Shown one piece after another: positions 38,791 through 61,621 of a stretch of 64,000 bases of DNA (its first letter is position 1; each line of letters begins with the position of its first letter). Under the pieces are notes generated by a model that was not told the DNA's origin, did not search any database, and worked only from the letters and a program-made list of their open reading frames with translations. The stretch is taken from positions 146,824 through 210,823 of the forward strand of contig MFRA01000005.1 in the NCBI GenBank assembly GCA_001783215.1, in the 5' to 3' direction. Origin of the DNA: Candidatus Magasanikbacteria bacterium RIFOXYD1_FULL_40_23 (GTDB lineage Bacteria; Patescibacteriota; Patescibacteriia; Magasanikbacterales; GWA2-37-8). The position numbers and the translations under genes are program-made.

Positions 38791-38860
38791 GCTTGAAATT
38801 CCGTCGCTCGCCCCAGATGAACACAAGCTTTCGCCTGGGGGCTCGCTAGGAATTATAAAA
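38791..38860 (+). promoter_or_regulatory. R1 leader element (variant) upstream of the ABC ATPase
   Basis: gcttgaaattccgtcgctcgccccagatgaacacaagctttcgcctgggggctcgctaggaattataaaa. Confidence 0.5.
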
Positions 38861-38868
38861 TCTTTACC

Positions 38869-40218
38869 ATGGAGCCAATTATTAAGACAGAAAATATCAA
38901 AGTTATATATAATAAGGGGCAAGATAATGAATATATCGCTCTTAATGATATTAGTATAGAGGTGTTTCCGGAAGAGTATTCGATTTTTTTCGGTCCTTCC
39001 GGATGCGGAAAATCAACTCTCCTCTATACGATTCTAGGACTTCAAAAAATAAGTGAAGGGAAATTATATATAAAAGGCCGAGAAAGTTCTTCTTTTTCGG
39101 AAGCAGACAAGAGCAACCTTGATTCCCAGTTCTTTGGTATCGTGTTCCAGAACTTCAATCTCATTTACTCTCTCAACGTTATAGACAACATCGCCCTACC
39201 ACAGGTGTTTTTGGAATCAAAAAAAGAAGTACGTTTGGCAAAATCCAAAACATTATTAGCACGTTTTGGTATAGAAACCAGAGCTCACAATTTGCCGGCA
39301 TCTCTCTCTGGTGGGCAGCAGCAAAGAGTAGCTATTTGTCGTGCGCTTGTAAACGATCCGCTTGTGTTGCTCGCCGATGAGCCGGTAGGTAACTTGGATA
39401 GTGAATCAGCCAGAGTGGTAATGGAATCAATTTATGATATCAACAAGAAAGATAAAAAAACTGTAATTTTGGTTACGCACGATCATACGTTTCTTCCCTA
39501 TGCCGATCGTATTTACTACTTCAAGGATGCTAAGTTAGAAAAAGTTGTGCAAAATACTCATCCTAAAAAGATGATTGCCGGCGCAAAAAATTTACAACAA
39601 GAAGAAGCCAGTGAAACCACCGGGTCCGGCACAGGTGACTTTACGCCTTTTGGAGAATTGGAAAAAATGGCGCGCGCGCATCATTTTATGACAGTGCCGC
39701 AGCTTAAAGCTTGGAGCATTACCAACTATCTAACAGATGAGTTTACTGTTAATCAGATAGAAAGACTGGAAAAGTTCATGGAAGAAATGTTGGCGGGCAA
39801 ACTTAGCGAACACGCATTTTTTGAGAAGTTAAATGCGCCGTTTAGTGAAGGTGGTGTGGGTTTGTATCAGGGCACAGCTATTAGGTTCACCCAAAAAATT
39901 TCTTCTATCCTGCGAGAAGTTGGTGCTTTTTTGCAAAATTTAAAAAATATTAAAGACCCACAAGAAAGTCTAAAAATGGTAGATATCTTAAGAAAATTTT
40001 TGTTGGAAGAATACCATGGTAGTTTAAGCCAAGAACAAATTCAGCGTTTGGAAAAGGGGATAGGTGAACGTTTGGCCGGAAGCATGAATGATCTTCAGTT
40101 TAGTGAACTATTAGACAAATCTGTTTCGGAAGGAGGCATAGGTTTAAATACATTAACAGCCGAGCATTTGTCCGAAAGGCTAGAAATAATTCTCGCTCAA
40201 GCCTATGAAAGCAACTGA
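38869..40218 (+). CDS. ABC transporter ATP-binding protein (MacB/FtsE-like) with a C-terminal tandem ~62-aa repeat domain
   Basis: Walker [10 protein letters not shown], signature [15 protein letters not shown] and Walker B LLADEP. The C-terminal repeats are ...[38 protein letters not shown]... and ...[39 protein letters not shown]... Confidence 0.8.
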
Positions 40219-41401
40219 TCTATTTTCATTATCAACCAGAATGTTTCGCACCAATCCATCCCGTACGTGGCTTACTATTTTGGGTATTAGCGTGGGGGTA
40301 GGGGCAGTGCTATTTTTGGTTTCTCTTGGGTATGGTTTACAAAATGTTATTTTGCAAAAAATAGTTTTTAATCAAGCACTTCTTAGTCTGCTTATTACTC
40401 CAAGTACAGACCTGATTGTGTTAGACGACAAGACCATAGCGGAAATTTCTCAGATTCAAAATGTTACCGACGTGACTGCTATGGCTAGATTTACGGGTCA
40501 GCTATCTATGGGTGGGGTAAATGGTACTGTAGATATTAGAACCGCTAACCCTTCATATTTTGCATATTCTGGTACAGAGGCCAAATACGGCAAGTTGTAC
40601 GAAGATGCAGATCAAAACCAGATATTGGTATCTGAAGCAGTGTTAAAGCTGTTTGGGCTTGAAGACCCAAATGAAATTCTGGGTAAACAGATTAACGTGA
40701 AAATTTTTACGCATAACGGCGCTGCCGACTCCGAGCTAGAAATTACAGAGATCCCAGTAGCCTATACAGTAAAGGGTATAATAGATGACAGCCAAGAGAG
40801 CTACGCTTTTCTTTCTCTCAAAGAAGCTCTAAATTATGTAAAAATCAATCAGTATGAGCAGGCGCGGGTAAAAGTAAATGATAGTAAAGATTTGGATTTA
40901 GTAAAAGAAGAAGTTATAGCCAGGGGATTTCAGACCCAATCACTATCGGAAACAATCGAACAGGCCAATAAGATCTTTAATGTTATCCAGATAGTTTTGG
41001 GTGCATTCGGTGCAGTCGCGCTTGCAGTTTCGGCCATCGGCATGTTTAACACCATGACGGTTACCCTGCTGGAACGTACAAATGAAATTGGTATTATGCG
41101 TGCTTTGGGCGCAGACAAGAGTAATTTACGCAATTTATTTTTAACGGAATCTGTAATAATCGGATTTTTCGGTGGGTTGGTAGGTACGGCTATTGGTATT
41201 GTGGGTGGTCAAATTTTTAATCTGGTTATAAATCAGTTGGCTGCCAAGTTTGGTGGTGCAAAGACAAGCTTGTTTGTATATCCAGCTTCATTTTTATTTA
41301 CAATTATTGGGCTTTCTGTATTTATTGGTTTTTTATCTGGCATATTTCCGGCCCGTCGCGCTGCGGCCATGGATCCGCTTGAAGCGTTGAGATACAAATA
41401 G
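40205..41401 (+). CDS. ABC transporter permease, FtsX/MacB family
   Basis: An N-terminal TM helix, a large extracytoplasmic domain and three C-terminal TM helices (FtsX-like). It overlaps the upstream ATPase gene. Confidence 0.75.
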   Translation: MKATDLFSLSTRMFRTNPSRTWLTILGISVGVGAVLFLVSLGYGLQNVILQKIVFNQALLSLLITPSTDLIVLDDKTIAEISQIQNVTDVTAMARFTGQLSMGGVNGTVDIRTANPSYFAYSGTEAKYGKLYEDADQNQILVSEAVLKLFGLEDPNEILGKQINVKIFTHNGAADSELEITEIPVAYTVKGIIDDSQESYAFLSLKEALNYVKINQYEQARVKVNDSKDLDLVKEEVIARGFQTQSLSETIEQANKIFNVIQIVLGAFGAVALAVSAIGMFNTMTVTLLERTNEIGIMRALGADKSNLRNLFLTESVIIGFFGGLVGTAIGIVGGQIFNLVINQLAAKFGGAKTSLFVYPASFLFTIIGLSVFIGFLSGIFPARRAAAMDPLEALRYK

Positions 41402-41404
41402 CCC

Positions 41405-41512
41405 TTGACAAATAATATAGTTGTGATATAATGTATTCAGCTTAGGAAGTGGTGAGCAATCATTCGCTTTCAGCAATACAGGGCTCTCAATGCGAGAGCC
41501 TTTTTGCTTTTT
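41405..41512 (+). ncRNA. promoter-to-terminator unit; candidate ~75-nt sRNA
   Basis: TTGACA, a 16-nt spacer and TATAAT at 41405-41432. Terminator gggctctcaatgcgagagcctttttgcttttt at 41481-41512. No ORF. The transcript contains CATTCGCT, as the R2 family does. Confidence 0.4.
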
Positions 41513-41518
41513 ACAGGG

Positions 41519-41546
41519 TTGACTTAAATTTTTTTAATGGTAAAAT
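41519..41546 (+). promoter_or_regulatory. sigma70-like promoter for the 41578 ORF
   Basis: TTGACT, a 16-nt spacer, then TAAAAT. Confidence 0.45.
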
Positions 41547-41577
41547 ACGTTCAACCTTTTTCATTTTATGATTTTAT

Positions 41578-42033
41578 ATGCAAAATTCTCAGATAAACAG
41601 AGTGGTTAGATTGGTAAGGAGAACTGGAGACAAAGCAATTATAATGGATAACGAATCGGACGCTATCATGATGCTCATGGATTTGGGAGCATACGAAAAA
41701 ATATTAGACCGTTCCCAAGGAGTAGAAAATTTAACAGAAGAAGAGTTGATGGAAAAGATAAATCGAGATGTGGCTGTATGGCGTGCCTATAACGACAAAG
41801 AACGCATAGAGACCTTTGATAAGGTATTAGAAAAACCGGTAGCTAATCAACCCGTTGAGTCAGCTAGAGCTACGGAGCAAAGTAGAGTAGAGCCAGAAAT
41901 GGCTAAAACTACAGTAAAAGAAGCAGTTCAGCCGACCCCAGAATATAGTAGATATGCCGGCACCGAAGAATCCGCAAGCGATATAATTGCCGAAGAAGGA
42001 GAAGAAAAGTTCTATTTAGAGCCGGTTGAGTAG
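41578..42033 (+). CDS. hypothetical acidic protein
   Basis: 151 aa with an E/D-rich C-terminus. No motif recognised. Confidence 0.45.
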   Translation: MQNSQINRVVRLVRRTGDKAIIMDNESDAIMMLMDLGAYEKILDRSQGVENLTEEELMEKINRDVAVWRAYNDKERIETFDKVLEKPVANQPVESARATEQSRVEPEMAKTTVKEAVQPTPEYSRYAGTEESASDIIAEEGEEKFYLEPVE

Positions 42034-42107
42034 GGTACGAATTAGTATAAAAAAGTGAAAAAAGAGGGGTGTTTTTTGTTCTAAATAGCTGTCCACAATT
42101 TACCCCC

Positions 42108-42136
42108 TTGCATTTTTTTTAATTGTCTGCTACAAT
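42108..42136 (+). promoter_or_regulatory. sigma70-like promoter of the tuf leader
   Basis: TTGCAT, a 17-nt spacer, then TACAAT. Confidence 0.5.
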
Positions 42137-42201
42137 GCTCACGCTATCTAGATTTAGTGTTTAGTTAGCGAAAATTTGTCAAAATTAGTAATTTTTAAAA
42201 T

Positions 42202-42248
42202 AAGCCCGACCATGTGTTGGTAACACATGGCATCTGGGCGGGCTTTTT
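42202..42248 (+). terminator. R4 element copy 1: a terminator- or attenuator-like compound hairpin in the tuf leader
   Basis: aagcccgaccatgtgttggtaacacatggcatctgggcgggcttttt. Three more hairpins follow before the tuf ATG. Confidence 0.45.
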
Positions 42249-42376
42249 AGACAAGGTATCGGCTCCGCCGATAACATAATAAATTATCCCGCTTTGCGGG
42301 TTTCTAATAAACATAAACGGCTGGAGAAAAATCTATCACCGACCACTCGGTGTAGTGCCGTCTAAGTATTAAGCTT

Positions 42377-43564
42377 ATGGCTGAGTTTGTACGAAACAAG
42401 CCACACGTAAACATTGGTACTATTGGTCACGTTGACCATGGTAAAACGACTTTAACAGCCGCTATTTTGTCGGTTTTAAGAAGTCGTGGTGGAGCTGCCT
42501 CCAATAAAGGCGTAGATGATTTGGATAAATCCCCAGAGTCCAAAGCTCGTGGTATTACCATCTCTACTGCTCACGTAGAATACGAAACAGACAACAGACA
42601 CTACGCTCACGTAGACTGTCCTGGCCACGCTGACTATGTTAAAAACATGATCACTGGTGCCGCTCAAATGGATGGTGCTATTTTAGTTGTTTCTGCTGCC
42701 GATGGTCCGATGCCTCAAACTAGAGAACACATCTTGCTTGCTCGTCAGGTAGGTGTGCCTTATATCGTAGTTTTCTTAAACAAAGTAGACCAAGTTACTG
42801 ATCCAGAATTGATCGACTTGGTAGAAGCTGAAGTTCGTGATTTATTGAAGAAATATGGTTTCCCTGGTGACACTACTACAATAATCCGAGGTTCTGCTTT
42901 GCAAGCTTTGCAAAACCCTACCGATGAAGCTGCAGCAAAACCAATTATGGATTTGATGGCTGCCTGTGACGCAATTCCTCAACCTGCACGTGATGTTGAT
43001 AAGCCTTTCTTAATGCCTATCGAAGATGTATTCTCTATTGAAGGACGCGGTACAGTAGTTACCGGTCGTTTGGAGAGAGGTGTTATTCACTTGAATGACG
43101 AAGCTTCTATCGTAGGTATGAGTGATGCTACTGGCAAGACAATTATTACTGGTATTGAAATGTTTAATAAGCAGTTAAAAGAAGGTCAAGCTGGTGACAA
43201 CGTAGGTTTGTTGCTTCGCGGTACCAAAAAAGAAGAAGTAGAACGCGGTATGGTTATTGCCAAACCGGGCAGTATTACTCCTCACACCGAATTTGAAGCT
43301 CAGGTATATATCTTGACCAAAGAAGAAGGTGGCAGACACAAGCCATTCTTCAAAGGCTATAAGCCACAATTCTATATCCGCACTACTGATGTAACTGGAG
43401 AAGTAGAATTACCAGCAGCCACTGAAATGGTTATGCCTGGAGACACTATTGGATTTAATGTTAAATTGATTTCTCCTGTAGCCATGGAAGAAAAGATGAA
43501 TTTTGCTATCCGCGAGGGTGGTAAAACCGTAGGTTCTGGTGTAGTAACTAAAATTATAAAATAA
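42377..43564 (+). CDS. tuf: elongation factor Tu
   Basis: [13 protein letters not shown] and DCPGHADY motifs. 395 aa. Confidence 0.95.
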
Positions 43565-43574
43565 CCTTGATTAA

Positions 43575-43605
43575 ACCCCCCTCCGATGTCATGTCGGAGG
43601 GGGGT
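43575..43605 (+). terminator. GC-rich hairpin after tuf (weak T-tract)
   Basis: cccccctccgatgtcatgtcggagggggg. Confidence 0.35.
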
Positions 43606-43619
43606 TATCCTTGCTCCTT

Positions 43620-43976
43620 ATGAAAGATACTAAAGACCACAAAAAAACAGCAGCCACAACCGTAGAAGAAACCATTAGCCGAATTAGAATTAAGATTCGT
43701 GCTTATGATAACAAGATTATAGATCAGGCTACAAAGAATATTATAGAGACAGCCGAACGAAGTGGGGCTACAATTGTTGGTCCAATACCACTACCTACAG
43801 AAAAGACTAAGTTTACAGTAAATCGCTCTACTTTTGTGCACAAAGACGCTCGTGAACAATACGAAATGCGCGTTCACAAACGTTTGATTGATATCGTAAA
43901 CCCAACTGCCAAAACTGTAGATGCTTTGATGAGTTTGCAAGTTCCAGCCGGTGTAGATATTGAAATAAAGATGTAA
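43620..43976 (+). CDS. rpsJ: 30S ribosomal protein S10, with a ~15-aa N-terminal extension
   Basis: [17 protein letters not shown]...[25 protein letters not shown]. Confidence 0.9.
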
Positions 43977-43988
43977 GGCAAAAAACCC

Positions 43989-44017
43989 TTGACATATATT
44001 AAAAATTGTAGTAGAAT
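43989..44017 (+). promoter_or_regulatory. consensus sigma70 promoter between rpsJ and rplC
   Basis: TTGACA, spacer tatattaaaaattgtag (17 nt), then TAGAAT. Confidence 0.5.
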
Positions 44018-44149
44018 CGTAGTAATAAAAAAGTTGATTCAGACTAAGTAAATAAGATGCATTGCAAAACATTTACAAAGTCGGAATAAACTAGGAGAAT
44101 AAATTATTTTAAAATTTTAAATTAAGCCAATCTAAGTTACTCAACCAGT

Positions 44150-44262
44150 GTCCAACTAGGGCTTTGGTGGGGCGAAGAAGGCTAGAAACGAGAACATGTT
44201 TTTATGGCCACCTAAAAGTGGTCGCTAAAAGCGGGTTGTTGTTTCTAGTTTTTATTTAGGAG
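44150..44262 (+). promoter_or_regulatory. structured 5' leader of rplC (candidate ribosomal-protein autoregulatory or attenuator element)
   Basis: A long-range stem, ggctagaaac...gtttctag, encloses the hairpins ggccacctaaaagtggtc and cgctaaaagcg. The SD GGAG lies just downstream. Confidence 0.35.
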
Positions 44263-44276
44263 AAAAGCGGGATATT

Positions 44277-44999
44277 ATGAAATTCATTTTAGGTAAAAAA
44301 ATAGGAATGACTCAGGTGTTCTTGCCAAATGGAACGGTAGTGCCTGTTACAAAAGTGCAAGCTGGCCCATGCCAAATTGCCGAAGTCAGAGCCGACAATA
44401 AGAATGGGGTAAAAGCCGTTCAGATTGGTTTTGGTGAAACAAAAGAAACAAGATTGGCTCAACCACAAGTAGGCCACTTAAAAGATCTAGACAAAGTACG
44501 CAACCTAAGAGATTTTAAAGTTGATAGTAATGCCGAAGTAAAAAGAGGCGATACTATAACTGTAGAAACATTTATTGTTGGAGATAAAGTACTTGTAGTA
44601 GGAGAATCCAAAGGTAAAGGTTTTGCCGGTGTAGTAAAACGCCATCACTTCCGCGGTGGACCTGCTTCTCATGGTCATAAAGACAACTTGCGCATGCCTG
44701 GTTCCATTGGTGCCGGTGGTGTACAAAGAGTTTTCAAGGGTATGAGAATGGGTGGTCGCATGGGTGGAGACAGAGTAACAATCAAAAATCTAGAAATTGT
44801 TGAAGTTCACCCAGAAACTAATGAATTATATATCAAAGGTGCCGTACCGGGCGGACGCAACGCTTTGTTGCTTATTAGCGCTGACGGTGAATTGAAGCTA
44901 AAGGCTGTTCAAGCTGCTCCTGTTGTAGAAGAGGTAATTCCAGAAGTAGTAGCTGAACCAGTAGTAGAACAAGTAGCTAGCAAAAATCAATCCGCATAA
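44277..44999 (+). CDS. rplC: 50S ribosomal protein L3
   Basis: MKFILGKKIGMTQVF...; 240 aa. The C-terminal ~35 aa are extended. Confidence 0.92.
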   Translation: MKFILGKKIGMTQVFLPNGTVVPVTKVQAGPCQIAEVRADNKNGVKAVQIGFGETKETRLAQPQVGHLKDLDKVRNLRDFKVDSNAEVKRGDTITVETFIVGDKVLVVGESKGKGFAGVVKRHHFRGGPASHGHKDNLRMPGSIGAGGVQRVFKGMRMGGRMGGDRVTIKNLEIVEVHPETNELYIKGAVPGGRNALLLISADGELKLKAVQAAPVVEEVIPEVVAEPVVEQVASKNQSA

Positions 45000-45007
45000 A
45001 AAATATT

Positions 45008-45640: not shown

Positions 45641-45647
45641 TAATCAA

Positions 45648-45723
45648 TATATGCGAAGCATATATTCTAATTCGCTCGGAAATAATTAAATAAATTTAAT
45701 AATTCCACTCACTTAATTACGAA
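45648..45723 (+). promoter_or_regulatory. R2 leader element upstream of rplW
   Basis: atatatgcgaagcatatattctaattcgctcggaaataattaaataaatttaataattccactcacttaattacgaatATG. Confidence 0.5.
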
Positions 45724-45724
45724 T

Positions 45725-46222: not shown

Positions 46223-46230
46223 TATTATAT

Positions 46231-47076: not shown

Positions 47077-47081
47077 TCTAT

Positions 47082-47426
47082 ATGTCTAGAAGTTTAAAAA
47101 AAGGCCCTTACGTTGATCCGAGAGTTCTGAACAAAGTAGAAAAGATGAAGGCCGCTGGAAAAAGACAACCAATAAAGACTTGGTCAAGAGCATGTGTAAT
47201 TTCTCCGGAAATGGTAGCTCAAACTTTTTTGGTTCACAATGGTAAAGATTTCTTAACTGTTTTGGTTGATGAAAATATGGTAGGCCACCGCTTGGGTGAG
47301 TTTGCTCCTACCAAGAAATTTGTTCGCCATGGTGGTAAGATGGCTAAAGATCAAGAAGGGGCAGCTGCCGCAGCTGCAGCCGCTGATTCCAAACCAGCCG
47401 CTAAAGCAGGAGAAAAAAAGAAATAA
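47082..47426 (+). CDS. rpsS: 30S ribosomal protein S19 with an Ala/Lys-rich C-terminal tail
   Basis: [12 protein letters not shown]...VHNGKDF; tail [22 protein letters not shown]. Confidence 0.92.
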
Positions 47427-47431
47427 GCAAA

Positions 47432-47500
47432 GCTTGAAATTACGTCGGGGTTCGTAAATAAGAAAGCATTCTTATTTAGCTCACCCCTAGCAATTATAAT
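47432..47500 (+). promoter_or_regulatory. R1 leader element upstream of rplV
   Basis: gcttgaaattacgtcggggttcgtaaataagaaagcattcttatttagctcacccctagcaattataat. Confidence 0.55.
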
Positions 47501-47507
47501 TAATTTT

Positions 47508-47894: not shown

Positions 47895-47896
47895 AT

Positions 47897-48598: not shown

Positions 48599-48606
48599 GA
48601 AGTAGT

Positions 48607-50241: not shown

Positions 50242-50784
50242 ATGAAAGTGAATTTATACGAAAAATATAAAAAAGAAATCGTACCTGCTTTGCAGAAAGA
50301 GTTTGGTTTCAAGAACGTAATGCAAGTTCCTAAATTAAAAAAGGTAGTTCTTAATGCTGGTATCGGACGTTTTGTAAAAGAGCCTCGCTTTATAGATAAC
50401 GTAGAAGCTAACTTGACCAAGATCAGTGGTCAAAAGCCTATGCGCACCAAAGCCAAGAAATCCATTTCTAACTTCAAAACTCGTGAAGGTATGGAAATCG
50501 GTGTGGCAGTTACTTTGCGCGGAGCAAAAATGTATCAATTTTTAGAAAAATTAGTTTCAATCACTTTGCCACGCGTAAGAGACTTTAGAGGTTTATCTGA
50601 CAAGAGTTTTGATAAGAACGGAAATTACGCAATTGGTTTCAAAGAGAACTTGGCTTTCCCAGAAATTAAGACTGAAGAATTGGAAAAAATGCATGGTTTA
50701 CAAATTATTATAAATATTAGCGCAAAAAATAAAGCGGAAGGCAAAGCTTTGTTAACTCACTTGGGCTTTCCCTTTGTAAAATAA
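50242..50784 (+). CDS. rplE: 50S ribosomal protein L5
   Basis: L5 family sequence (NVMQVPKLKKVVLNAGIG). Confidence 0.95.
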   Translation: MKVNLYEKYKKEIVPALQKEFGFKNVMQVPKLKKVVLNAGIGRFVKEPRFIDNVEANLTKISGQKPMRTKAKKSISNFKTREGMEIGVAVTLRGAKMYQFLEKLVSITLPRVRDFRGLSDKSFDKNGNYAIGFKENLAFPEIKTEELEKMHGLQIIINISAKNKAEGKALLTHLGFPFVK

Positions 50785-50789
50785 GCGGA

Positions 50790-50857
50790 GCTTGAAATTC
50801 CGTCGGGCCTCGCAAATAAAACACATTTTATTTGACTCAGCCCTAGAAATTATAAAA
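50790..50857 (+). promoter_or_regulatory. R1 leader element upstream of rpsN
   Basis: gcttgaaattccgtcgggcctcgcaaataaaacacattttatttgactcagccctagaaattataaaa. Confidence 0.55.
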
Positions 50858-50859: not shown

Positions 50860-51045
50860 ATGGCTACCCAATCACAAATTGCAAAATCAAATAGAAAACC
50901 TAAATTTACCACTAGAATCGTAAGACGCTGTTGGAAATGCGGCCGTGTCCACGGTTATATGGGAGAATTTGGGTTGTGCCGTATTTGTTTTAGAGAATTA
51001 GCCAACCAGGGTAAGATTCCTGGTGTGCGTAAATCAAGCTGGTAA
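50860..51045 (+). CDS. rpsN: 30S ribosomal protein S14, zinc-binding type Z
   Basis: 61 aa, CWKCGRVHGYMGEFGLCRIC. Confidence 0.92.
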   Translation: MATQSQIAKSNRKPKFTTRIVRRCWKCGRVHGYMGEFGLCRICFRELANQGKIPGVRKSSW

Positions 51046-52017: not shown

Positions 52018-52043
52018 AAATTGGTTTATTATAAAAATGTAGT

Positions 52044-52418: not shown

Positions 52419-52440
52419 AGTATAATAAGAAATTTATAGT

Positions 52441-52965: not shown

Positions 52966-52984
52966 TTTAGGTTAATTTTCAAAT

Positions 52985-53425: not shown

Positions 53426-53499
53426 TGATAAAATGGTAAAGCTGATTGTGTTGGTCAAGTGGAATGGTTTACCAGTTTAATCACCTTCATCAATTATTT

Positions 53500-54774: not shown

Positions 54775-54819
54775 TCTGAGGCCAAGATTGAAGAAACCTT
54801 TTTGAAATGATAAACTAAG

Positions 54820-54842
54820 AGGGCTGGAAAGCCCTTTTTAGT
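54820..54842 (+). terminator. rho-independent terminator after secY
   Basis: agggctggaaagcccttttt. Confidence 0.6.
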
Positions 54843-54873
54843 TTAAATTAACTTAAAATAGTAAATAGTAGGA

Positions 54874-54984
54874 TAGGGGCTAAAGCCACATATATACTCA
54901 TTCACTCGGAAATATCCAGATTAAATATTTATAACTCGCAAGCGATTATAAATATTTCATTGTCTATTTCCCTCATTCATCTCG
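54874..54984 (+). promoter_or_regulatory. R2 leader element upstream of adk
   Basis: ggataggggctaaagccacatatatactcattcactcggaaatatccagattaaatattt...ccctcattcatctcgtatATG. Confidence 0.5.
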
Positions 54985-54987
54985 TAT

Positions 54988-55644: not shown

Positions 55645-55647
55645 TGT

Positions 55648-56454
55648 ATGTTAATCAAAACTCCCGAAGAAATAAAATTAATTAAACAAGGTGGCAAGCT
55701 GATGGGTGAAATTTTAGAGCACTTGGCCAAAATGTGCAAACCAGGCACTGCTGTTTTGGATATAGATAAAATGGCGGAAGAAATGATTTTAGAAGCAGGT
55801 GGAATACCGGCCTTCAAGGGTTATAAAACACGGCTTACCGACACACCGTTTCCAGCCACTATTTGCGCATCTATAAACGAAGAGCTGGTGCACGGTATAC
55901 CCAAAAAAGGTGTAGTCTTAAAAGATGGAGATATCTTTACTATAGACATAGGTATGGAGTGGCCATACAAAGGCAAAGGCGCCGGCCAAGGATATTTTAC
56001 CGATACTGCCGTCACTATTCCAATTGGTAAAATTTCTCCAAAAAACAGAGAGTTGCTGCGTGTTACCCAAGAATCTTTGGAAGAGGGTATAAGAGCAGTT
56101 AAGCCTGGCAATACGGTAGCCGATATTGGCAAAGCTATAGAAGATTATATTAAGTCCCAGGGTAAATATGGAATTATTCGTGATTTGGTTGGCCACGGTG
56201 TGGGGCATGAAGTGCACGAAGATCCAAGAATACCAAATTATTACGATCGTAATTTAGACTATATTATCCTAAAAGAAGGTATGGTAATTGCCGTTGAGCC
56301 TATGGTTTCTTTGGGTGGCTGGAGAGTAAAAACTGCCAATGATGGATGGACAATACTTACATCTGACGGATCGTTAAGCGCTCACTTTGAACATACAATG
56401 GTTATTACAAAAAGTGGATGTACAGTGGTAACCAGAAGACCTGGTGAGAAATAA
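55648..56454 (+). CDS. map: type I methionine aminopeptidase
   Basis: Metal-ligand pattern D..D..H..E..E (FTIDIGME..., GHGVGHEVHE). Confidence 0.9.
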   Translation: MLIKTPEEIKLIKQGGKLMGEILEHLAKMCKPGTAVLDIDKMAEEMILEAGGIPAFKGYKTRLTDTPFPATICASINEELVHGIPKKGVVLKDGDIFTIDIGMEWPYKGKGAGQGYFTDTAVTIPIGKISPKNRELLRVTQESLEEGIRAVKPGNTVADIGKAIEDYIKSQGKYGIIRDLVGHGVGHEVHEDPRIPNYYDRNLDYIILKEGMVIAVEPMVSLGGWRVKTANDGWTILTSDGSLSAHFEHTMVITKSGCTVVTRRPGEK

Positions 56455-56464
56455 GCGCCAAGGC

Positions 56465-56533
56465 GCTTGAAATTACGTCGGGCTTCAAAAAAGAAAATTC
56501 ATTTTCTTTTTATTCAGCCCTAGTAATTATAGA
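56465..56533 (+). promoter_or_regulatory. R1 leader element upstream of ruvX
   Basis: gcttgaaattacgtcgggcttcaaaaaagaaaattcattttctttttattcagccctagtaattataga. Confidence 0.55.
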
Positions 56534-56540
56534 CTTCTTT

Positions 56541-56939
56541 ATGATTTTACTTGCAATAGATTTTGGCACAAAGAATATTGGTTTAGCCAAAGCCTCTACA
56601 GAGGTAGATGTGGTCTTGCCTTTTGGTGTTATAAGCAATGTTGATAAAAACCAGGCAGAGCAAGAGTTGGTAAAACTTATCAAAGATCAGCGTGTAGATA
56701 AAATTATAGTTGGTTTGCCGTTTGGTTTAGATGGAAAAGAAAACAATAATACAATTAGAATAAGAGAATTTGTTGAAAGACTAAAAAAAGAAGTTGATGT
56801 TTCTTTTGAATTTATAACCGAAGTGTTTTCTTCTCAGGCCGGTGATCGAATGGGTGTAGGTGTAAGCCGGGATGAAAAATCTGCCATGGTAATTTTACAA
56901 AGCTATTTGGAGAAAACCGCCTTGGGCGGGAAACAATAA
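56541..56939 (+). CDS. ruvX: Holliday-junction resolvase-like protein YqgF/RuvX
   Basis: ILLAIDFGTKNIGLA ... VGLPFGLDG ... SAMVILQSYL. Confidence 0.8.
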   Translation: MILLAIDFGTKNIGLAKASTEVDVVLPFGVISNVDKNQAEQELVKLIKDQRVDKIIVGLPFGLDGKENNNTIRIREFVERLKKEVDVSFEFITEVFSSQAGDRMGVGVSRDEKSAMVILQSYLEKTALGGKQ

Positions 56940-56948
56940 ATTCAAACT

Positions 56949-57554
56949 ATGTTTGCAATAGTATTGTCCAGGAACAATACACGTGAGTTTGATCAGATGG
57001 TATCTTTGTATACGCGTGAGCAGGGCAAAGTAGAAGTGCTGGCCAAAGGGATTAAGAAAATTGTCAGCAAGAATTCTGCCAACTTAAAAGTTTTTTCTTT
57101 GGTGGATGTAGAAGTTGCTAAAGGAAAAGGCGTAGACCATTTGACCAAGGTGCAATCAATAAATATCTTTAGAAATATTTATAATGATTTTGATAAAATT
57201 TTTGTAGCTGGTTATATTATAAAAATAGCGGACAATAGTATTTTGGTAGGGGAGAAAGATGAAAGAATTTTTGATTTGTTACTTAGTTTTTTGGAGTTTT
57301 TAAACTCTGCCGTATCGGTTAATTCTTTTGTTCTGGTAACAGGCTTTGTCTTCAAACTATGGCACTGTCTGGGTTTTGGCGATTCGGAAAATAAATACAG
57401 TGTGTGGCTAGAGAGTAGTTGGGCAGATATAAATAATTTAAAATTAACAAAACAGGAAGCGTTAAACGCCTACGAAGCTGCCAGAAATTTTGCTCAACAT
57501 CATGCCGGTGTAAAACTTGCGGAATTCATAGAAAGTGATAGGATTATGGTATAA
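56949..57554 (+). CDS. recO: DNA repair protein RecO (short form)
   Basis: N-terminal OB-fold pattern AIVLSRNNTREFDQMVSLYTREQGKVEVLAKGIKK. 201 aa. Confidence 0.6.
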   Translation: MFAIVLSRNNTREFDQMVSLYTREQGKVEVLAKGIKKIVSKNSANLKVFSLVDVEVAKGKGVDHLTKVQSINIFRNIYNDFDKIFVAGYIIKIADNSILVGEKDERIFDLLLSFLEFLNSAVSVNSFVLVTGFVFKLWHCLGFGDSENKYSVWLESSWADINNLKLTKQEALNAYEAARNFAQHHAGVKLAEFIESDRIMV

Positions 57555-57566
57555 ATTGATTATTAT

Positions 57567-58859
57567 ATGCAAACTTTTATCAAAAATTTAGCATCTCTGG
57601 TAGATCAGGAAGTAGAGATTAAAGCTTGGTTATATAACAAACGTTCCTCTGGGCCGATTGCCTTTTTGGAATTGCGAGACGGTACCGGTTGGGTGCAAGC
57701 TGTGGCAGCAAAGTCCGATTTGAGCGCTACTGTGTGGGAAGACGTAGAAAAAGCTACTCAAGAATCATCTGTGGTAATTTTGGGTAAAGTAGCTAAACAC
57801 CCAAAAAAAGAAAATGTTTTTGAGTTGCAAGTTAAAGATTTTAAAATTATTCAATTGGCTCAAGAGTACCCAATTGCTCACAAAGAACATGGCCCAGATT
57901 TTCTAATGGAGAATCGGCACTTGTGGTTGCGTAGTAAAAAGCAATGGGCGATATTGCGTGTACGTGATTCTATTATTACTGCTATCGGTGAATATCTACA
58001 CAAAGAACTTTTTATAAAAGTAGATTCACCAGTATTTACGCCAAATGCCTGTGAAGGTACAACCACGCTTTTCCCAGTGCCATATTTTGATTTGGGCACA
58101 GCGTACTTATCTCAATCTGGTCAGCTGTATATAGAAGCAGCCATCGCTTCCGTTGGTCGTTGTTATGATTTTGGGCCAGTGTTTCGTGCCGAAAAAAGTA
58201 AAACAAAAAGACATCTAACAGAGTTTTGGATGATGGATGCCGAAGCTGCTTTTGTAGAGCATGAAGAAAATTTAAAAATCCAAGAAGGATTGGTGCGATA
58301 TATAATTCGCTACTGTTTAAATAACTGCCAAGAAGAATTGAGAATTTTGGAACGCAATACGGAGCCATTAGAAAAAGCCGACAATCCATTTACTCGTTAT
58401 ACTTATGATGAAGCAATAAAGAAATTAAACGAGCTTGGGTCAGACATAAAATATGGTGAAGATTTAGGAAATGATGATGAGGGAATACTAACCAAAGATT
58501 CTGAAGTGCCAGTATTTATAGAAAAATGGCCAAAAAGCATAAAGCCGTTTTATATGAAACGAGATTCTGTTAATCCGGATTTGGTTTTAAATGATGATTT
58601 AATTGCGATAGAAGGTGCGGGAGAGATAATCGGTGGGAGTCAGCGTGAAGATGATTATGATTTGCTACTATCTAGAATAAAAGCGGAAGGTTTAAATATA
58701 GAAGATTACCAATGGTATTTAGATTTGCGAAAATATGGAAGTGTGCCCCATGCTGGATTTGGTATTGGTTTAGAACGTATGGTTCGTTGGGTTACTGGTG
58801 TAGAGCATATTCGTGAATGTATTCCATTTCCTAGGACGATTGGAAGATTAAAGCCATAA
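57567..58859 (+). CDS. asnS: asparaginyl-tRNA synthetase (class IIb)
   Basis: FRAEKSKTKRHLTEFWMMDAE (AsnRS-type EFWM motif), GGSQRE, and the class II motif 3 GFGIGLERMV. Confidence 0.75.
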   Translation: MQTFIKNLASLVDQEVEIKAWLYNKRSSGPIAFLELRDGTGWVQAVAAKSDLSATVWEDVEKATQESSVVILGKVAKHPKKENVFELQVKDFKIIQLAQEYPIAHKEHGPDFLMENRHLWLRSKKQWAILRVRDSIITAIGEYLHKELFIKVDSPVFTPNACEGTTTLFPVPYFDLGTAYLSQSGQLYIEAAIASVGRCYDFGPVFRAEKSKTKRHLTEFWMMDAEAAFVEHEENLKIQEGLVRYIIRYCLNNCQEELRILERNTEPLEKADNPFTRYTYDEAIKKLNELGSDIKYGEDLGNDDEGILTKDSEVPVFIEKWPKSIKPFYMKRDSVNPDLVLNDDLIAIEGAGEIIGGSQREDDYDLLLSRIKAEGLNIEDYQWYLDLRKYGSVPHAGFGIGLERMVRWVTGVEHIRECIPFPRTIGRLKP

Positions 58860-58877
58860 ACAAAATAAACACAGGTT

Positions 58878-58903
58878 AAAAACCGCCAACTGGCGGTTTT
58901 TTG
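58878..58903 (+). terminator. rho-independent terminator
   Basis: aaaaccgccaactggcggttttttg. Confidence 0.75.
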
Positions 58904-59056
58904 TTTATTCTTAGCCAAATTTTGACTTGTAAACATTGACAAAATGGCAAAAATATGATAATAATATGCGCAGATAACCCTCCGCTTTGGAGGGCTCTTT
59001 GACAATGTGTGGCGGTTAGATTCGCTACACATAAGACACAGTCGGGGGAAACGTCA

Positions 59057-60331
59057 ATGGCTTTCGAACAGAAACAGGCAACAGGAAGTGGTGCTTTGGA
59101 TAATAGCGCGGAAGGTGCCAGCTATCGGGCTGGTGCTGGTGGGCAGAAAGGCAATGGTGCTGCTGCCGGGAAGGTTCCGGCGACCTCCAAGCTTAGGGTC
59201 AAGCCTAAGCAGGCTGCTGAACCCGAAGAGATCGTTATGACCGGCCACCCCTTGCTCGACAAGGGGCTTGCCTGTGATGATCGAGAGGGCAAGGCGCCTG
59301 AATGTCCGCTTGATGAGCGGGACGCCAAACGTCTTGAAGATATGGTTGAGCGTGCGGGCACGGCCTATTGTATGGCCATGATCATGGCGCTCGGCAATCT
59401 CTATCTCGAGTTCAAGACCAAGCATCACAAGACTTGGGGTCCGTGGCATGAGATTTTCTTTCTCGTTGTAACCACAGCGGCCTTCGGTCCGCTTGGTGCG
59501 CTTGGTGCCTCGGTAGGAGCTCGTGCAGCTGTGGGGCTCGCGATGCGTGGTGCCACAAGGGCAGCATGGACAGCAGCCAGCATTGATGCATCGAAGCTCA
59601 TTGGCGTTTTCACTACGATGTCGAAGGGTGTGCGTAGCTCCCTTGCCCATCGTAGCGTTGATATGCCGACCGACGAGATTGAGTTCATCAAGTACATGCA
59701 GGACCAGGTGCCGGGCTTCGTCGAGAATCTCATGCAAGGCATTGCTGAGCATGAACTTGATCAGCTCGAGATGCTCGAAGTGGTCGCCCGGCTACAAGAT
59801 CCGGACATTTCCGGACGGGCTGCTATTGAGCACCGTGGCCGTACGTTGTTGGCACAGTTCGGCGAGAACCGCATCGGTTCGATTGGGAATGTTATGGACC
59901 TTGGTGGAGGTTACGAAGTAGCTACTCCAGTACGCGTTCGTCTTCGCAAGAAGGAATTAATGGTTCTATGTGAAAGCCTTGGTGTTCACCATTCGGCCCT
60001 TGCGCTTAATGGTGCCAACCTGGACCTGGAACCAGGTGTTTCTAAGATGACGATGGAGAGCCTAGTCTACGTCAAGATGATTGAACCGGCTTTTCATGAG
60101 CTGGTTACCGCTGAGTACAGTGGTAAGCGGAAAGAGGAAGTTCCGTTCATCAACTTCGATGATTGCGCCGAGCGAAAGAAACATCGTTGGTTCAAAGATA
60201 TGTACCACGATATGAAGCGGCGCGAACGGCTTGAAAAATATATCGACGATATGCACAACATTGGCGGGCTGCCTGCCAATGACATGGACGACGAAAACAA
60301 TGGTGACATGGTCGCCGAAGCGGGAGAGTGA
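59057..60331 (+). CDS. hypothetical protein (GC-rich, ~55% GC; internal Gly/Ala-rich hydrophobic segment)
   Basis: 425-aa ORF. SD gggggaaacgtcaATG. Preceded by a TTGACA...TAATAAT promoter (~58938-58966) and the hairpin ccctccgctttggaggg. Confidence 0.5.
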   Translation: MAFEQKQATGSGALDNSAEGASYRAGAGGQKGNGAAAGKVPATSKLRVKPKQAAEPEEIVMTGHPLLDKGLACDDREGKAPECPLDERDAKRLEDMVERAGTAYCMAMIMALGNLYLEFKTKHHKTWGPWHEIFFLVVTTAAFGPLGALGASVGARAAVGLAMRGATRAAWTAASIDASKLIGVFTTMSKGVRSSLAHRSVDMPTDEIEFIKYMQDQVPGFVENLMQGIAEHELDQLEMLEVVARLQDPDISGRAAIEHRGRTLLAQFGENRIGSIGNVMDLGGGYEVATPVRVRLRKKELMVLCESLGVHHSALALNGANLDLEPGVSKMTMESLVYVKMIEPAFHELVTAEYSGKRKEEVPFINFDDCAERKKHRWFKDMYHDMKRRERLEKYIDDMHNIGGLPANDMDDENNGDMVAEAGE

Positions 60332-60756
60332 ATACAGTGAGGAATGCAATTTTCGTCATCATCTTTACTGGTCTGATCGGCTTTCTGGGGCTCACTTCCA
60401 AGAGGCAGTACGATAAGATTAACACACTTACTTCACAGGTCTCCAAACACAAGGAGGTTCGCGAGAAGATGTGCAATCGCATCCTGTCTATTTCTGAAGA
60501 AATGGCTCAGGTGACCCTTCAGACGCCGCTCAACATCGAGGATAGTCAACGGCTGCGCACAGACTTGCTAGCAGTTGGGGCCTATGCCGAAGGATGTGTT
60601 GATCTGCCTAGTATCACCAAGAAAGCAATGGAGGGTTGTCAGAACGGAAGTGTTGACGACAGTCTTCTCAAAGAAGGTGTTTGGGCGCTCGACGAAGAGT
60701 TGAGCGTTGCCAAGAAGAATGGGTGGAAACTATATGAGCAGAAGCCCAAGTTGTAG
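60328..60756 (+). CDS. hypothetical membrane-anchored protein (GC-rich), translationally coupled to the upstream ORF
   Basis: The GTG start overlaps the upstream TGA (GTGA). N-terminal TM helix AIFVIIFTGLIGFLGL. 142 aa. Confidence 0.45.
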   Translation: MNTVRNAIFVIIFTGLIGFLGLTSKRQYDKINTLTSQVSKHKEVREKMCNRILSISEEMAQVTLQTPLNIEDSQRLRTDLLAVGAYAEGCVDLPSITKKAMEGCQNGSVDDSLLKEGVWALDEELSVAKKNGWKLYEQKPKL

Positions 60757-60814
60757 CTGAAAGTAGTAAGAGTCATCTAAACGGAGAAGTCCGTGCAGAT
60801 GCTATAAGCAGTTC

Positions 60815-60848
60815 ACCAGGCACACCGTGCCTGGTTATTTGTTTTTAT
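60815..60848 (+). terminator. rho-independent terminator
   Basis: ccaggcacaccgtgcctggttatttgttttt. Confidence 0.7.
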
Positions 60849-60917
60849 AGGTAAGATTGACCTTGCTAGATAATTTGCTATAAACAAAATTGCCACAAAG
60901 AGTAGCATTTAACAGGG

Positions 60918-60946
60918 TTGACAAAGTGTCTTATCTAAAATATACT
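60918..60946 (+). promoter_or_regulatory. consensus sigma70 promoter of the tRNA-Leu gene
   Basis: TTGACA, a 17-nt spacer, then TATACT. The tRNA 5' end lies ~14 nt downstream. Confidence 0.6.
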
Positions 60947-60959
60947 GTTTTACAGATAG

Positions 60960-61041
60960 GCCGAAGTGGCGGAATTGGTAGACGCACACGACTCAAAATC
61001 GTGCGGAGAAATCCATGAGAGTTCGATTCTCTCCTTCGGCA
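60960..61041 (+). tRNA. tRNA-Leu (anticodon CAA), type II with a long variable arm
   Basis: GCCGAAGTGGCGGAATTGGTAGACGCACACGACTCAAAATCGTGCGGAGAAATCCATGAGAGTTCGATTCTCTCCTTCGGCA. Anticodon loop ACTCAAAAT. Confidence 0.85.
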
Positions 61042-61050
61042 CAATATTAT

Positions 61051-61105
61051 TATTTCATGGCAATATTAACAAGAGAATGCCTTTCTTTTTAATATTGCCA
61101 TGAAA
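61051..61105. repeat. perfect 17-bp inverted repeat (large hairpin) between the tRNA-Leu gene and the next ORF
   Basis: atttcatggcaatattaa...(19 nt)...ttaatattgccatgaaat. Confidence 0.6.
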
Positions 61106-61127
61106 TTGAAAACAGGAGGCAAGTCAA

Positions 61128-61385
61128 ATGATGAGAATCAGGGTTAGAGGAGAAGTCTATAATGGGAGAACGGCTGTAGAGCTGGTTTCCCATATGCGTT
61201 CCGACTTTAATGCGTTTGCGAGAAAGCCAGCAAGCTCCAATGCGGCTTATATGGATCGTAGGATTCAGTGGTTTAAGGCTCATTCTAACGTAGAAGTGGT
61301 GCGTGACGGAACGACAGAAGAAGATCAGTGTCTTTCGTTTATTCGTTCTATGGTCAACGGCGGGTTGGCAGAGGAGATCACGTGA
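61128..61385 (+). CDS. hypothetical protein
   Basis: 85-aa ORF with a strong SD (acaggaggcaagtcaaATG). Confidence 0.45.
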   Translation: MMRIRVRGEVYNGRTAVELVSHMRSDFNAFARKPASSNAAYMDRRIQWFKAHSNVEVVRDGTTEEDQCLSFIRSMVNGGLAEEIT

Positions 61386-61445
61386 CTAAGATTGGCGGCG
61401 AGATAACATCAAGCCGTTTTTTTATTAGTGTCCGTAATGAAATAG

Positions 61446-61495
61446 AGGCCCGCCCAGGCACCTTTTGTTATAAACAGAAGGTCGGGCTTATTTTT
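61446..61495 (-). terminator. R4 element copy 2, in reverse orientation relative to copy 1
   Basis: The reverse complement, aagcccgaccttctgtttataacaaaaggtgcctgggcgggcct, shares its flanks (aagcccgacc ... ctgggcgggc) with 42202-42248. Confidence 0.4.
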
Positions 61496-61513
61496 AATTT
61501 ATGTGTTATAATA

Positions 61514-61550
61514 TTCTAAGATTTAGAATTTCTAAATATTTAGAAGCAAA
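61514..61550. promoter_or_regulatory. two adjacent inverted repeats upstream of parA (candidate operator)
   Basis: attctaaGATttagaat and tttctaaaTAtttagaa. Confidence 0.35.
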
Positions 61551-61621
61551 GCTTTGCAATTCCGTCAGGTCTCACAAATAAGAAAAATACATTTTTCTTA
61601 TTTGATTTAACCTTAGCAATT
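61551..61621 (+). promoter_or_regulatory. R1 leader element (divergent copy) upstream of parA
   Basis: gctttgcaattccgtcaggtctcacaaataagaaaaatacatttttcttatttgatttaaccttagcaattGTG. The paired boxes covary (AGGT/ACCT). Confidence 0.5.

Follow-up and report, generated by a model that had tools for sequence, protein, structure and literature searches.

Two groups are among the described repeats closest to the subject of this study. The REP/BIME elements of Enterobacteria and Pseudomonas are short imperfect palindromes without coding capacity, which lie in intergenic, mostly transcribed DNA, keep their stems by compensatory change, gather in clusters or arrays, often stand just past stop codons as hairpins of the mRNA, and are mobilised by RAYT, a HUH Y1 transposase. 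The Correia (CREE/NEMIS), ERIC/IRU, RUP and BOX elements are non-autonomous repeats of ~100-150 nt with terminal inverted repeats and A/T-rich intergenic targets; they are co-transcribed as long hairpins that RNases can cut, and their presence or absence differs between strains. The genomes of the Candidate Phyla Radiation (CPR, or Patescibacteria) are tiny and densely packed, and to our knowledge their mobile DNA has been little described. Here we describe R1, a repeat which resembles both groups in many of these respects and which was found in a 64,000-nt stretch of Candidatus Magasanikbacteria bacterium RIFOXYD1_FULL_40_23 (contig MFRA01000005.1, positions 146,824 to 210,823 of the forward strand; hereafter the window).

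The initial annotation of the window had reported five structured elements of ~70 nt, each ending shortly before a start codon, and had offered as possible roles a 5' untranslated region (UTR) element for initiation without a Shine-Dalgarno (SD) sequence, a processing site or a binding site. As shown below, R1 is a dispensable, duplicating, structured repeat that lodges at gene termini with fixed ends in or beside (A/T)TATAA; its copies are gained and lost between close relatives, and genes that it abuts end at a TAA or TGA of R1 itself (or, on the opposite strand, at a TAA or TAG). The composite explanation which we favour, and consider probable, is that R1 is a non-autonomous, structure-dependent repeat of the mobile type, with kin among REP, ERIC and Correia elements and miniature inverted-repeat transposable elements (MITEs).

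Structure and distribution of the R1 family

A two-box pattern (CTTGAAATTNCGTC-N30-60-CTAGNAATT) run against species-representative genomes matched at least 119 stretches. At least 117 further structured copies were found, in ~80 metagenome-assembled genomes (MAGs) of the Parcubacteria group; two matches in non-CPR MAGs (L081 and L101) were structureless and were discarded as chance. The host MAGs are named as Magasanik-, Moran-, Falkow-, Kuenen-, Azam-, Portnoy-, Nealson-, Yanofsky-, Yonath- and Tagabacteria or as "Parcubacteria/Patescibacteria group", and the remaining ones are third-party MAGs with doubtful labels. Magasanikiibacteriota and Moraniibacteriota, the two phyla checked, are separate candidate phyla within the NCBI Parcubacteria group. 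The window itself is nearest to Magasanikbacteria, and locus L121 encodes an identical S14 protein at 78-80% DNA identity. No match to the two-box pattern was found among the 2.9 million viral contigs of IMG/VR, on which ground a phage origin was set aside. Rfam 15 at its gathering threshold returned only two tRNAs for the whole window, and a permissive scan (E up to 10) of the copy named c4 below gave chance matches of 8-19 bits, all far under the gathering scores. The literature on repeats, MITEs, palindromes and structured RNAs of CPR bacteria and Parcubacteria yielded no description of R1. TIGR arrays, the one CPR repeat system that this literature brought up, have a box C/D-like signature and were set aside, that signature being missing from R1. 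R1 is apparently a large family, restricted to Parcubacteria-group CPR bacteria and new to description.

Among the third-party MAGs, L001, L017-L020, L025-L029, L097 and others carry R1 together with CPR-type operons despite non-CPR or doubtful labels ("uncultured Gammaproteobacteria", "Bdellovibrionales", "Saccharibacteria"), which are probably wrong; L097, for instance, bears the label Gammaproteobacteria although it has 74% identity to the ribosomal operon of the window.

The full R1 unit (~75-100 nt) is composed of (A/T)TATAA, a first hairpin P1 (G-P1-CUUG), a single A, the box AAAUUNC, GUC, an irregular hairpin, (C)UA, the box GN'AAUU and a final AUAA. The base of P1, UAAG/CUUG, is invariant and comprises one U.G pair and three Watson-Crick pairs, to which a variable extension is added, for 5 to 14 bp in total. 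One A further, the two boxes form the outer stem P0 (AAAUUNC/GN'AAUU), in which the variable base of each box belongs to one covarying pair. Within P0 an invariant GUC/UA internal loop leads to a short clamp, a conserved loop of the UC/UC type and a variable terminal stem-loop. Two subfamilies can be told apart, class A having a GGG/CCC clamp and an A-rich/U-rich tip, and class B a GC clamp and a tip like CCCCAGAUGAAAGC…GCUUUCGCCUGUGGG. In the flanks, the logos give A(T/A)TA-TAAG for the left side and AATT-ATAA for the right.

Among the matches listed, N and N' form a Watson-Crick pair in 111 of 122 distinct copies (CG 36, GC 32, AU 23, UA 20), and P1 is formed in ~110 of 121, its fifth pair covarying between C-G, U-A and A-U. 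When 32 class B sequences were laid on a hand-drawn structure, 95.4% of the cells were paired and double-sided changes occurred at 18 of 30 pairs; controls in which the sequences were slid gave 34-48% paired cells, and none of 500 shuffles reached the observed values. For class A (27 sequences) the corresponding figures were 93.9%, 15 of 26 pairs and 36-62% in the slid controls. Because the stems covary so far above the slid controls, selection on the structure of R1 is strongly supported. The initial annotation had read the covariation as the mark of a functional RNA or DNA structure, and the pairing at N/N', in P1 and in both classes strongly supports this.

Such a structure could belong to a cis-acting RNA of the host, i.e. 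an intercistronic or 3'-UTR hairpin for a conserved RNase or RNA-binding protein (for instance a processing site of the RNase III type or a stabiliser), which would set the relative stability or translation of neighbouring cistrons and would have been duplicated to many junctions, its mobility being incidental. The sequence and loops are conserved across several candidate phyla, as such a role would predict, and the irregular helix of ~25 bp with internal loops is like phage T7 RNase III sites and processed Correia hairpins. As to which strand folds, and whether it does so as RNA or as DNA, the signs are mixed. P1 contains many G.U pairs. In the main hairpin, on the other hand, the sense strand shows no excess of G.U pairs over A.C mismatches, the latter being at least as many, and the antisense fold is as stable as the sense fold or more so, on average by ~2 kcal/mol.

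When the 64-kb window was scanned, with filters off, by a covariance model trained solely on copies of other genomes, exactly five copies were recovered (76.7, 75.7, 65.7, 65.1 and 39.5 bits; E 3.5e-17 to 1.3e-7), the next-best match scoring 13.6 bits; the five elements are thus where the initial annotation had placed them, both in the sequence and by this model. There are exactly four occurrences of the 15-mer GCTTGAAATTMCGTC, each of them on the + strand, and the fifth copy carries it with three mismatches. No sixth copy was found in the window by the model. A candidate on the - strand at 6338-6362 (12.2 bits, E 1.3), which reads ACTTGAATTA…TAATTATAA like fused boxes and has no P1, is probably a chance match. 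All five copies fold better than their shuffles, the margin being clear in c3-c5 (z -2.6 to -4.0) and only weak in c1 (z -1.3) and c2 (z -1.9), and the N pair of the outer stem is paired only in c1 and c4.

Copy c1 (38775..38858, + strand; 76.7 bits, E 3.5e-17) is of class B and aligns with class B copies elsewhere. Its P1 (TAAGCAC-tgtccca-GTGCTTG) occupies 38775-38795, P0 joins 38797-38802 to 38849-38854 with a C-G N pair, and a GC-rich inner hairpin (38806-38846) and an ATAA tail (38855-38858) complete the unit; upstream lies a 2064-aa protein with FN3 repeats (stop TAG 38747-38749) and downstream an ABC ATPase (ATG 38869). Copy c2 (47424..47499, +; 65.7 bits), of class A, has P1 TAAGC-aaa-GCTTG at 47424-47436, P0 between 47438-47443 and 47490-47495 with an A.C mismatch as its N pair, a GGGG/CCCC clamp, the AT-rich hairpin aaataagaa/ttcttattt and an ATAA tail at 47496-47499. 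The TAA of its P1 (47424-47426) is the stop of rpsS, and rplV starts at ATG 47508. Copy c3 (50782..50855, +; 65.1 bits), also of class A, has P1 TAAGC-gga-GCTTG at 50782-50794, P0 between 50796-50801 and 50846-50851 with a C.A mismatch, a GGGC/GCCC clamp and the hairpin aaataaaa-caca-ttttattt; the stop of rplE is the P1 TAA (50782-50784), and the ATG of rpsN is at 50860. Copy c4 (56452..56532, +; 75.7 bits; fold -20.3 kcal/mol, z = -3.5) combines a class A hairpin with a longer P1 (TAAGCGC-caag-GCGCTTG, 56452-56469); P0 joins 56471-56476 to 56523-56528 with an A-T N pair, the clamp is GGGC/GCCC, the hairpin aaaaagaaaa/ttttcttttt and the tail ATAG, the P1 TAA (56452-56454) is the stop of map, and ruvX starts at ATG 56541. 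Copy c5 (61542..61621, +; 39.5 bits, E 1.3e-7; fold z = -4.0), assigned to class A, has diverged: P1 is AAGC-aaa-GCTT (61544-61554), the 5' box CTTTGCAATTCCGTC, the clamp AGGT/ACCT and the 3' box TTAGCAATT, with an AT-rich hairpin of 13 bp, and directly after the 3' box stands the GTG start (61622) of a ParA-type ATPase.

The compensatory clamp changes GGGGT/ACCCC, GGGC/GCCC and AGGT/ACCT read as they had been described, and the genes are those that had been named: L22, S14 and RuvX, like L19, L5 and Map, were identified from a public contig identical to the window (locus L120), and the ABC ATPase, the ParA-type ATPase and the 2064-aa protein by Pfam. Other points of the initial annotation needed revision. 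The units begin ~10-20 nt further 5', with the overlooked hairpin P1, whose 3' strand is the GCTT that had been taken for part of a box. The "reorganised clamp" at 38791 does differ; it is not a one-off, since c1 belongs to class B, a second subfamily common in other genomes. The AT-rich hairpins, held to be specific to each copy, are variants of a family consensus seen in other genomes, c4 being 95% identical to L105. The copies do end close to start codons, at distances of 10, 8, 4, 8 and 0 nt when the unit is ended at ATAA, short of the ends first assigned, as against the 8-20 nt given before.

Two observations concern the genes beside these copies. The protein upstream of c1 (32555-38749) consists of repeated fibronectin-III and purple-acid-phosphatase-N-type domains and is presumably a giant surface protein. 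The 3' end of rpsS (47340-47426) encodes an Ala/Lys-rich low-complexity C-terminal extension of S19 (114 aa in total) that stops at the TAA belonging to c2, and S19 of L122 and of L121 ends in a similar tail.

Duplication, gain and loss of copies

The MAG CAYRSW01 carries five copies on five contigs, which are ~96-100% identical over ~78 nt and lie in unrelated flanks; the similarity ends at TTATAAG on the left and at AATTATA(A/G) on the right. In the family as a whole, hairpins are 74% identical within genomes and 62% between them (none of 1000 permutations reached this), and 19 of 67 copies have their closest relative within their own genome. Head-to-tail arrays in which neighbouring units share one ATTATAAG junction were seen in L094 (three units), L062, L066 and L055. 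Near-identical copies that appear in bursts at unrelated loci, and arrays in tandem, are difficult to reconcile with a host RNA whose mobility is incidental.

Syntenic ribosomal operons were collected by means of the S14 protein of the window. Contigs of the same species, which is present in samples such as ANAN16-1 (ERZ28563808), SRR2090173 and JGI 3300025152, have the same three copies in this operon as the window, whereas all three are missing from L122 and L129 (85-90% identity to the window) and from L121 (78%); R1 is therefore dispensable at these junctions, which again speaks against a host RNA. The empty rplE-rpsN junction in L122 and L129 reads gtaaaaTAAaattATGgct (gtaaaaTAAaattATG), and the filled allele gtaaaaTAA[gcggag…ctagaaattaTAA]aaatATGgct, with a TAA on both sides of the insert. 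At rpsS-rplV, L122 (2594-2614) has kept a footprint, TAAGCAAAGATTGAATTATAA, which consists of P1 and the tail, everything between two AATT repeats having been deleted. A footprint of the same kind, ATTATAAGCAAAGCTTGAAATTATAA, is present at L003:2738-2768, and the common form of the two is TAAGCAAAG(C/A)TTGAA(A)TTATAA. Deletion of the hairpin between two AATT repeats is thereby shown to be one route by which copies are lost. The map-ruvX junction of L121 contains no R1, and its rplE-rpsN junction retains a remnant, TAAGCTTGAAGATTT. At the latter junction L097, an outgroup to the window, L122 and L121, has an orthologue of c3 with the identical unusual hairpin; the c3 copy is for this reason old and has since been lost in other lineages. 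L103 carries a copy at rplN-rplX, where the window has none.

Most copies are flanked on both sides by (A/T)TATAA, and the flank is the same at every site. One explanation for these junctions is that R1 is a miniature cassette for site-specific recombination, in which a folded or double-stranded att-like site with a 5-7-bp core, (A/T)TATAA, is used by a tyrosine or serine recombinase through a circular intermediate, analogous to integron attC sites or to Xer-exploiting elements, and which spread originally with replacement secA 3' ends. The same direct repeat of 5-7 nt at both ends, the filled and empty rplE-rpsN sites, which fit a crossover inside ATAA, and the single ATTATAAG junction shared within arrays all agree with such a cassette, as does the attC-like layout, in which an outer stem is followed by an unpaired spacer, then an inner stem and a variable tip. 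On the other side, no integrase was found in the window or among the genes recurring beside the copies listed, the boxes differ from the attC consensus RYYYAAC/GTTRRRY, the cassettes are without genes, the copies are dispersed and not arrayed at one attI, and with the P1 of class B the "spacer" separating the putative arms would be longer than a simple recombinase site allows. We regard a recombination cassette as improbable, although it has a further point in its favour at secA (below).

Gene ends, secA and the start codons

Neighbouring genes in the family loci were taken from crude longest-ORF calls. Among the 120 copies listed, 37 have an upstream open reading frame (ORF) of at least 60 codons that stops at the P1 TAA, and in 16 further copies the upstream ORF runs through P1 and stops at the TGA inside CTTGA, so that the stop lies inside the element in 53 (44%). 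A same-strand ORF starts within 40 nt of the element in 47 copies (39%). As to configuration, 56 of the copies listed lie in sense between co-directional genes, ~10 in antisense, 12 between convergent and 12 between divergent genes; ~15% of copies are antisense, and the ratio of sense to antisense in co-directional runs is ~6 to 1. For genes that run towards a copy from its far side, the stop codon is often a TAA or TAG in the complement of the 3' box. Behind several class B copies stands a separate terminator-like hairpin with a T run, and one copy has a tRNA gene behind it. The positional rule of R1 is thus one of gene ends and TAA, not of start codons, and all five copies of the window abut start codons because they lie in very short spacers. 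The initial annotation had set its proposal against a dispersed MITE free of positional bias; a dispersed MITE is largely what R1 resembles, but a bias does exist, towards gene ends and TAA.

The 5'-UTR element first proposed would recruit ribosomes to SD-less starts just 3' of it. The five window copies, which all end 0-10 nt before a start codon, could be read in this manner, and so could ~10 copies of the family in which ATG replaces the ATA of the 3' box; the five genes, as had been noted, have no obvious SD sequence. This lack is genome-wide, since SD-like 4-mers (GGAG, GAGG, AGGA) precede only 10 of 64 confident ORFs of the window, and ~85% of its genes have no such motif whether or not they have R1; the SD-like match at c1 falls in the element's own 3' box. 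In 73 of the 120 copies listed no start codon lies within 40 nt. In L122 and L129 the rplE-rpsN and rpsS-rplV junctions are also without an SD sequence, the start codon being 4-21 nt past the stop, so that rpsN and rplV of these relatives begin at the same SD-less junctions without R1. Copies in 3' UTRs before terminator-like hairpins, beside a tRNA gene and in antisense are likewise not accounted for. We therefore hold a role in recruiting ribosomes to be very improbable; a role of R1 as a processing or binding site, the other suggestions made at the outset, may exist. Annotators should be aware that covariation beside start codons can stem from mobile palindromes and not from translational control.

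Other cis-acting functions were also considered. A consensus scan called no intrinsic terminator at the five copies, whose 3' tail (AAUUAUAA) has no U tract. As for a sigma-70 promoter, TTGAAA and TATAA lie ~55 nt apart, and promoter-like sites were no more frequent than in shuffles and none was common to the copies. A promoter or terminator reading was rejected, as the scan showed no site common to the copies. A gene-specific leader (riboswitch or ribosomal-protein leader) was rejected since the downstream genes are unrelated (L22, S14, RuvX, ParA, ABC ATPase and many others).

Many cistrons of the window are 2-25 nt apart, and most initiation in this genome would seem to be coupled or SD-independent. 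A second intergenic repeat, which has no relation to R1, occurs at 45641-45724 (rplD-rplW gap), at 25403-25485 (upstream of a UvrD-type helicase) and at 54880-54987 (secY-adk gap), and also at L121:240-322 and L122:3005-3101. It is composed of a short GC hairpin, ATATA(A/T)TCTCAYTCGYTCGRAAAT, an AT-rich hairpin and CYCACTYAWWTCGAWT, ends at ATG and contains a TATAAT-like box; like R1, it stands at different operon junctions in different relatives. This repeat could be a promoter with a conserved leader, and it would be a better candidate than R1 for a signal of SD-independent initiation.

When 858 ORFs from 117 loci were clustered, SecA was the sole recurrent neighbour family among the loci listed, the other clusters being housekeeping genes. 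In at least eight species the P1 of class B is read in frame as the end of secA: the codons AAG AAA TAT AAG CGC TGC TGT GGC GCT TGA give K-K-Y-K-R-C-C-G-A-stop, with the TGA inside what had been called the 5' box, and across species the tail encoded by P1 reads K-R-C-C/H-G-A-stop. The Pfam SEC-C match comprises residues 748-765 of 766, i.e. it extends up to the penultimate residue. Straight after the element's AATTATAAG a second SecA-like C-terminus follows (e.g. AAG AAG TGC TGC GGA AAA TAA, or KKCCGK-stop), in which differences between lineages are mostly synonymous; in L043 this stretch carries a frameshift, and elsewhere conserved residues are gone from it. Splicing or ribosomal bypass was rejected in view of this frameshift and these losses, two formerly functional alleles, a donor and a recipient, being the simpler account. 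The left-flank consensus of class B, AAATATAAG, corresponds to the K-Y-K codons of the SEC-C motif, and the P1 of other types, in dispersed copies, likewise looks like a SecA tail with its inverted complement behind it (KKCRG…, KRCHGA-stop). Most SecA tails of CPR bacteria are ordinary (KKCHGA, KKCHGK or KKCCGK), and no R1 was found in four secA loci examined; the idea of a copy at every secA was abandoned accordingly.

Judged from these sequences, the secA terminus would be a recurrent site of landing or exchange, at which the class B element brings a donor secA end that replaces that of the recipient. That the P1 of one subfamily copies the 3' end of secA suggests that the R1 family arose at, or repeatedly passes through, this terminus. 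A repeat hairpin that also codes for the zinc-finger tail of an essential protein is unusual, and the secA inserts may reveal how conserved gene ends serve as landing pads for DNA exchange. The element-borne C-terminus and the displaced native one are also what the recombination cassette would predict, as in integrative elements of tRNA genes, and other CPR secA ends likewise show a hairpin insert with a duplicated C-terminal coding stretch.

Three further secA loci deserve mention. Downstream of secA in L131 (794-960) and L133 (3365-3540), where R1 is absent, a different hairpin insert is followed by a second copy of the zinc-finger tail (GGSGKKYKKCCGA-stop); in L133 the unit is tandemly repeated, and between its two tails there are 8 synonymous and 0 non-synonymous differences. 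The secA of L130 (500-560) ends in a P1-like sequence and the R1 5' box, with no hairpin.

One way in which a mobile-type repeat could behave as R1 does is the following. A trans-acting enzyme would recognise the folded single strand together with a (T)ATAA target, and would copy or insert R1; an enzyme like those of HUH/IS200-IS605 elements, a RAYT-like one or a recombinase acting on folded DNA would be candidates. Recognition of a folded strand is probable because pairing is kept while the identity of the bases is free at N/N' and in the tip, and placement beside (T)ATAA would make TAA stop codons natural and harmless targets. Insertions would survive mainly in the sense orientation and in short spacers, co-transcribed as stable hairpins of the mRNA. 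These hairpins are perhaps mildly useful, being processed or protecting neighbouring cistrons as REP and Correia elements do, and would be tolerated, which would account for the sense bias and for the strong conservation of old copies. R1 would not be needed for translation of the gene downstream.

Several points weigh against this explanation, and some of them favour a host RNA. No transposase, recombinase, reverse transcriptase or RAYT was found in the window (Pfam, 35 ORFs), and no mobilising enzyme recurs beside copies in the ~0.8 Mb of pattern-derived loci L001-L119, so that the enzyme is hypothetical; solo R1 ends flanking a gene were also absent from these loci and from the window. The constant TATAA fits a target-site duplication, a target preference or a part of the element alike. 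Copy number per genome seems low (five in 64 kb here, few extra per 8-kb locus). The inner-hairpin loops are nearly invariant, which is more conservation than would be expected of inert junk. As for the boxes, the family sample was gathered with a pattern that fixes both of them and is biased to copies in which they are intact; their invariance is in part by construction for that reason, and copies found only by the model (c5, L054:101 and L055:4150) show that they drift. The c3 copy and its L097 orthologue are 96% identical, as against 82-89% for the flanking ribosomal-protein genes, which is likewise more than inert junk should show and which a host RNA would explain; the sense bias of ~6 to 1 fits a role at the RNA level as well as it fits selection against antisense insertions, and the tight fit of R1 between stop and start codons in operons is of the same kind. 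Apart from secA, no consistent gene association exists among the loci listed, antisense copies make up ~15%, and many copies have convergent or divergent genes on their two sides, none of which a host RNA would predict. Together with the empty junctions of close relatives, this leads us to consider the host RNA rather unlikely, and to prefer the mobile-type repeat.

A bolder possibility is an ancient system of "gene-end cassettes", in which a dedicated enzyme for folded single-stranded DNA has maintained the family since before the candidate phyla split, with a founding or master copy fused to secA, stop codons supplied by the element, and stop and start placed at the ends of a helix. Were this true, the first hairpin would double as coding sequence for the last residues of the SecA zinc finger, and the outer stem would bring the upstream stop and the downstream start to opposite ends of one helix, so that translational coupling in SD-poor operons would survive insertion or even be tuned by it. 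We think this clearly unlikely. Whatever its origin, the presence of R1 across candidate phyla, in ribosomal-protein operons and over stop codons indicates that selfish or duplicative DNA does occur in CPR genomes. That pairing is so strictly conserved hints at a structure-specific enzyme or an RNA-binding factor, and this in organisms for which few nucleic-acid enzymes are known, and the covariance model and the insertion polymorphisms offer a practical marker for tracking strains in uncultured lineages.

Comparison with known systems

Compared to REP/BIME elements, R1 is two to three times longer (75-100 nt, against a palindrome of 20-40 nt), has two hairpins and conserved internal loops, carries UAAG/CUUG and CUAG boxes and no GTAG, and has a seemingly much lower copy number; in addition, one R1 sequence family spans several candidate phyla. 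Among the neighbour gene clusters of the loci listed there was no RAYT or Y1 transposase. The difference from Correia, ERIC, RUP and BOX elements lies in the inverted repeats, which in R1 covary freely at one position, and in the hypervariable tip, both of which point to recognition of structure, and in the flanking repeat, which is a constant (A/T)TATAA and not TA. We know of no parent insertion sequence of R1. With regard to MITEs, R1 has terminal inverted repeats, AAATTNC/GN'AATT, which extend to CTTGAAATTNC/GN'AATTATAAG with two mismatches, and the five CAYRSW01 copies are near-identical, dispersed and sharply bounded; the free covariation of N and N', in contrast, would be unexpected if a transposase bound each end separately.

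Integron attC sites are laid out like R1, with a conserved outer stem, then a spacer that is not paired, then an inner stem and lastly a variable end; they also share with R1 the precedence of structure over sequence, a place at gene 3' ends and the possibility of head-to-tail arrangement. The boxes of R1, CTTGAAATTNC and GN'AATTATAA, differ from RYYYAAC/GTTRRRY, no integrase was found in the window by Pfam, nor an attI, and the genes beside R1 are not cassettes but belong to conserved operons and encode ribosomal proteins or have other housekeeping roles. The palindrome-associated elements derived from IS200/IS605 (PATEs) depend on hairpins, use a fixed short motif at insertion, have an orientation bias and make no classical variable target-site duplication. 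R1 recalls this type in that TATAA is fixed at the left flank and at the right end and the CUUG at the foot of the hairpin pairs with the flanking UAAG, reminiscent of the pairing between guide and cleavage site in IS608. PATEs, however, have two similar subterminal hairpins and distinct left and right cleavage motifs, whereas R1 has one large hairpin and P1; neither TnpA nor TnpB was found in the window or recurring by the listed loci, and the likeness in mechanism is inferential. The palindromic elements of Rickettsia (RPE) resemble R1 in that they lie in reading frames and are translated within essential proteins, as is P1, which in at least 11 loci supplies in-frame codons for the SecA terminus or for a ...SKA-stop ending. 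They show no sequence similarity to R1 and lie in mid-gene, where they add segments of peptide, whereas R1 replaces the last residues or supplies the stop. It is in its lineage, its two-hairpin architecture, its conservation across phyla and its SecA-tail-mimicking hairpin that R1 is distinct from the known repeats.

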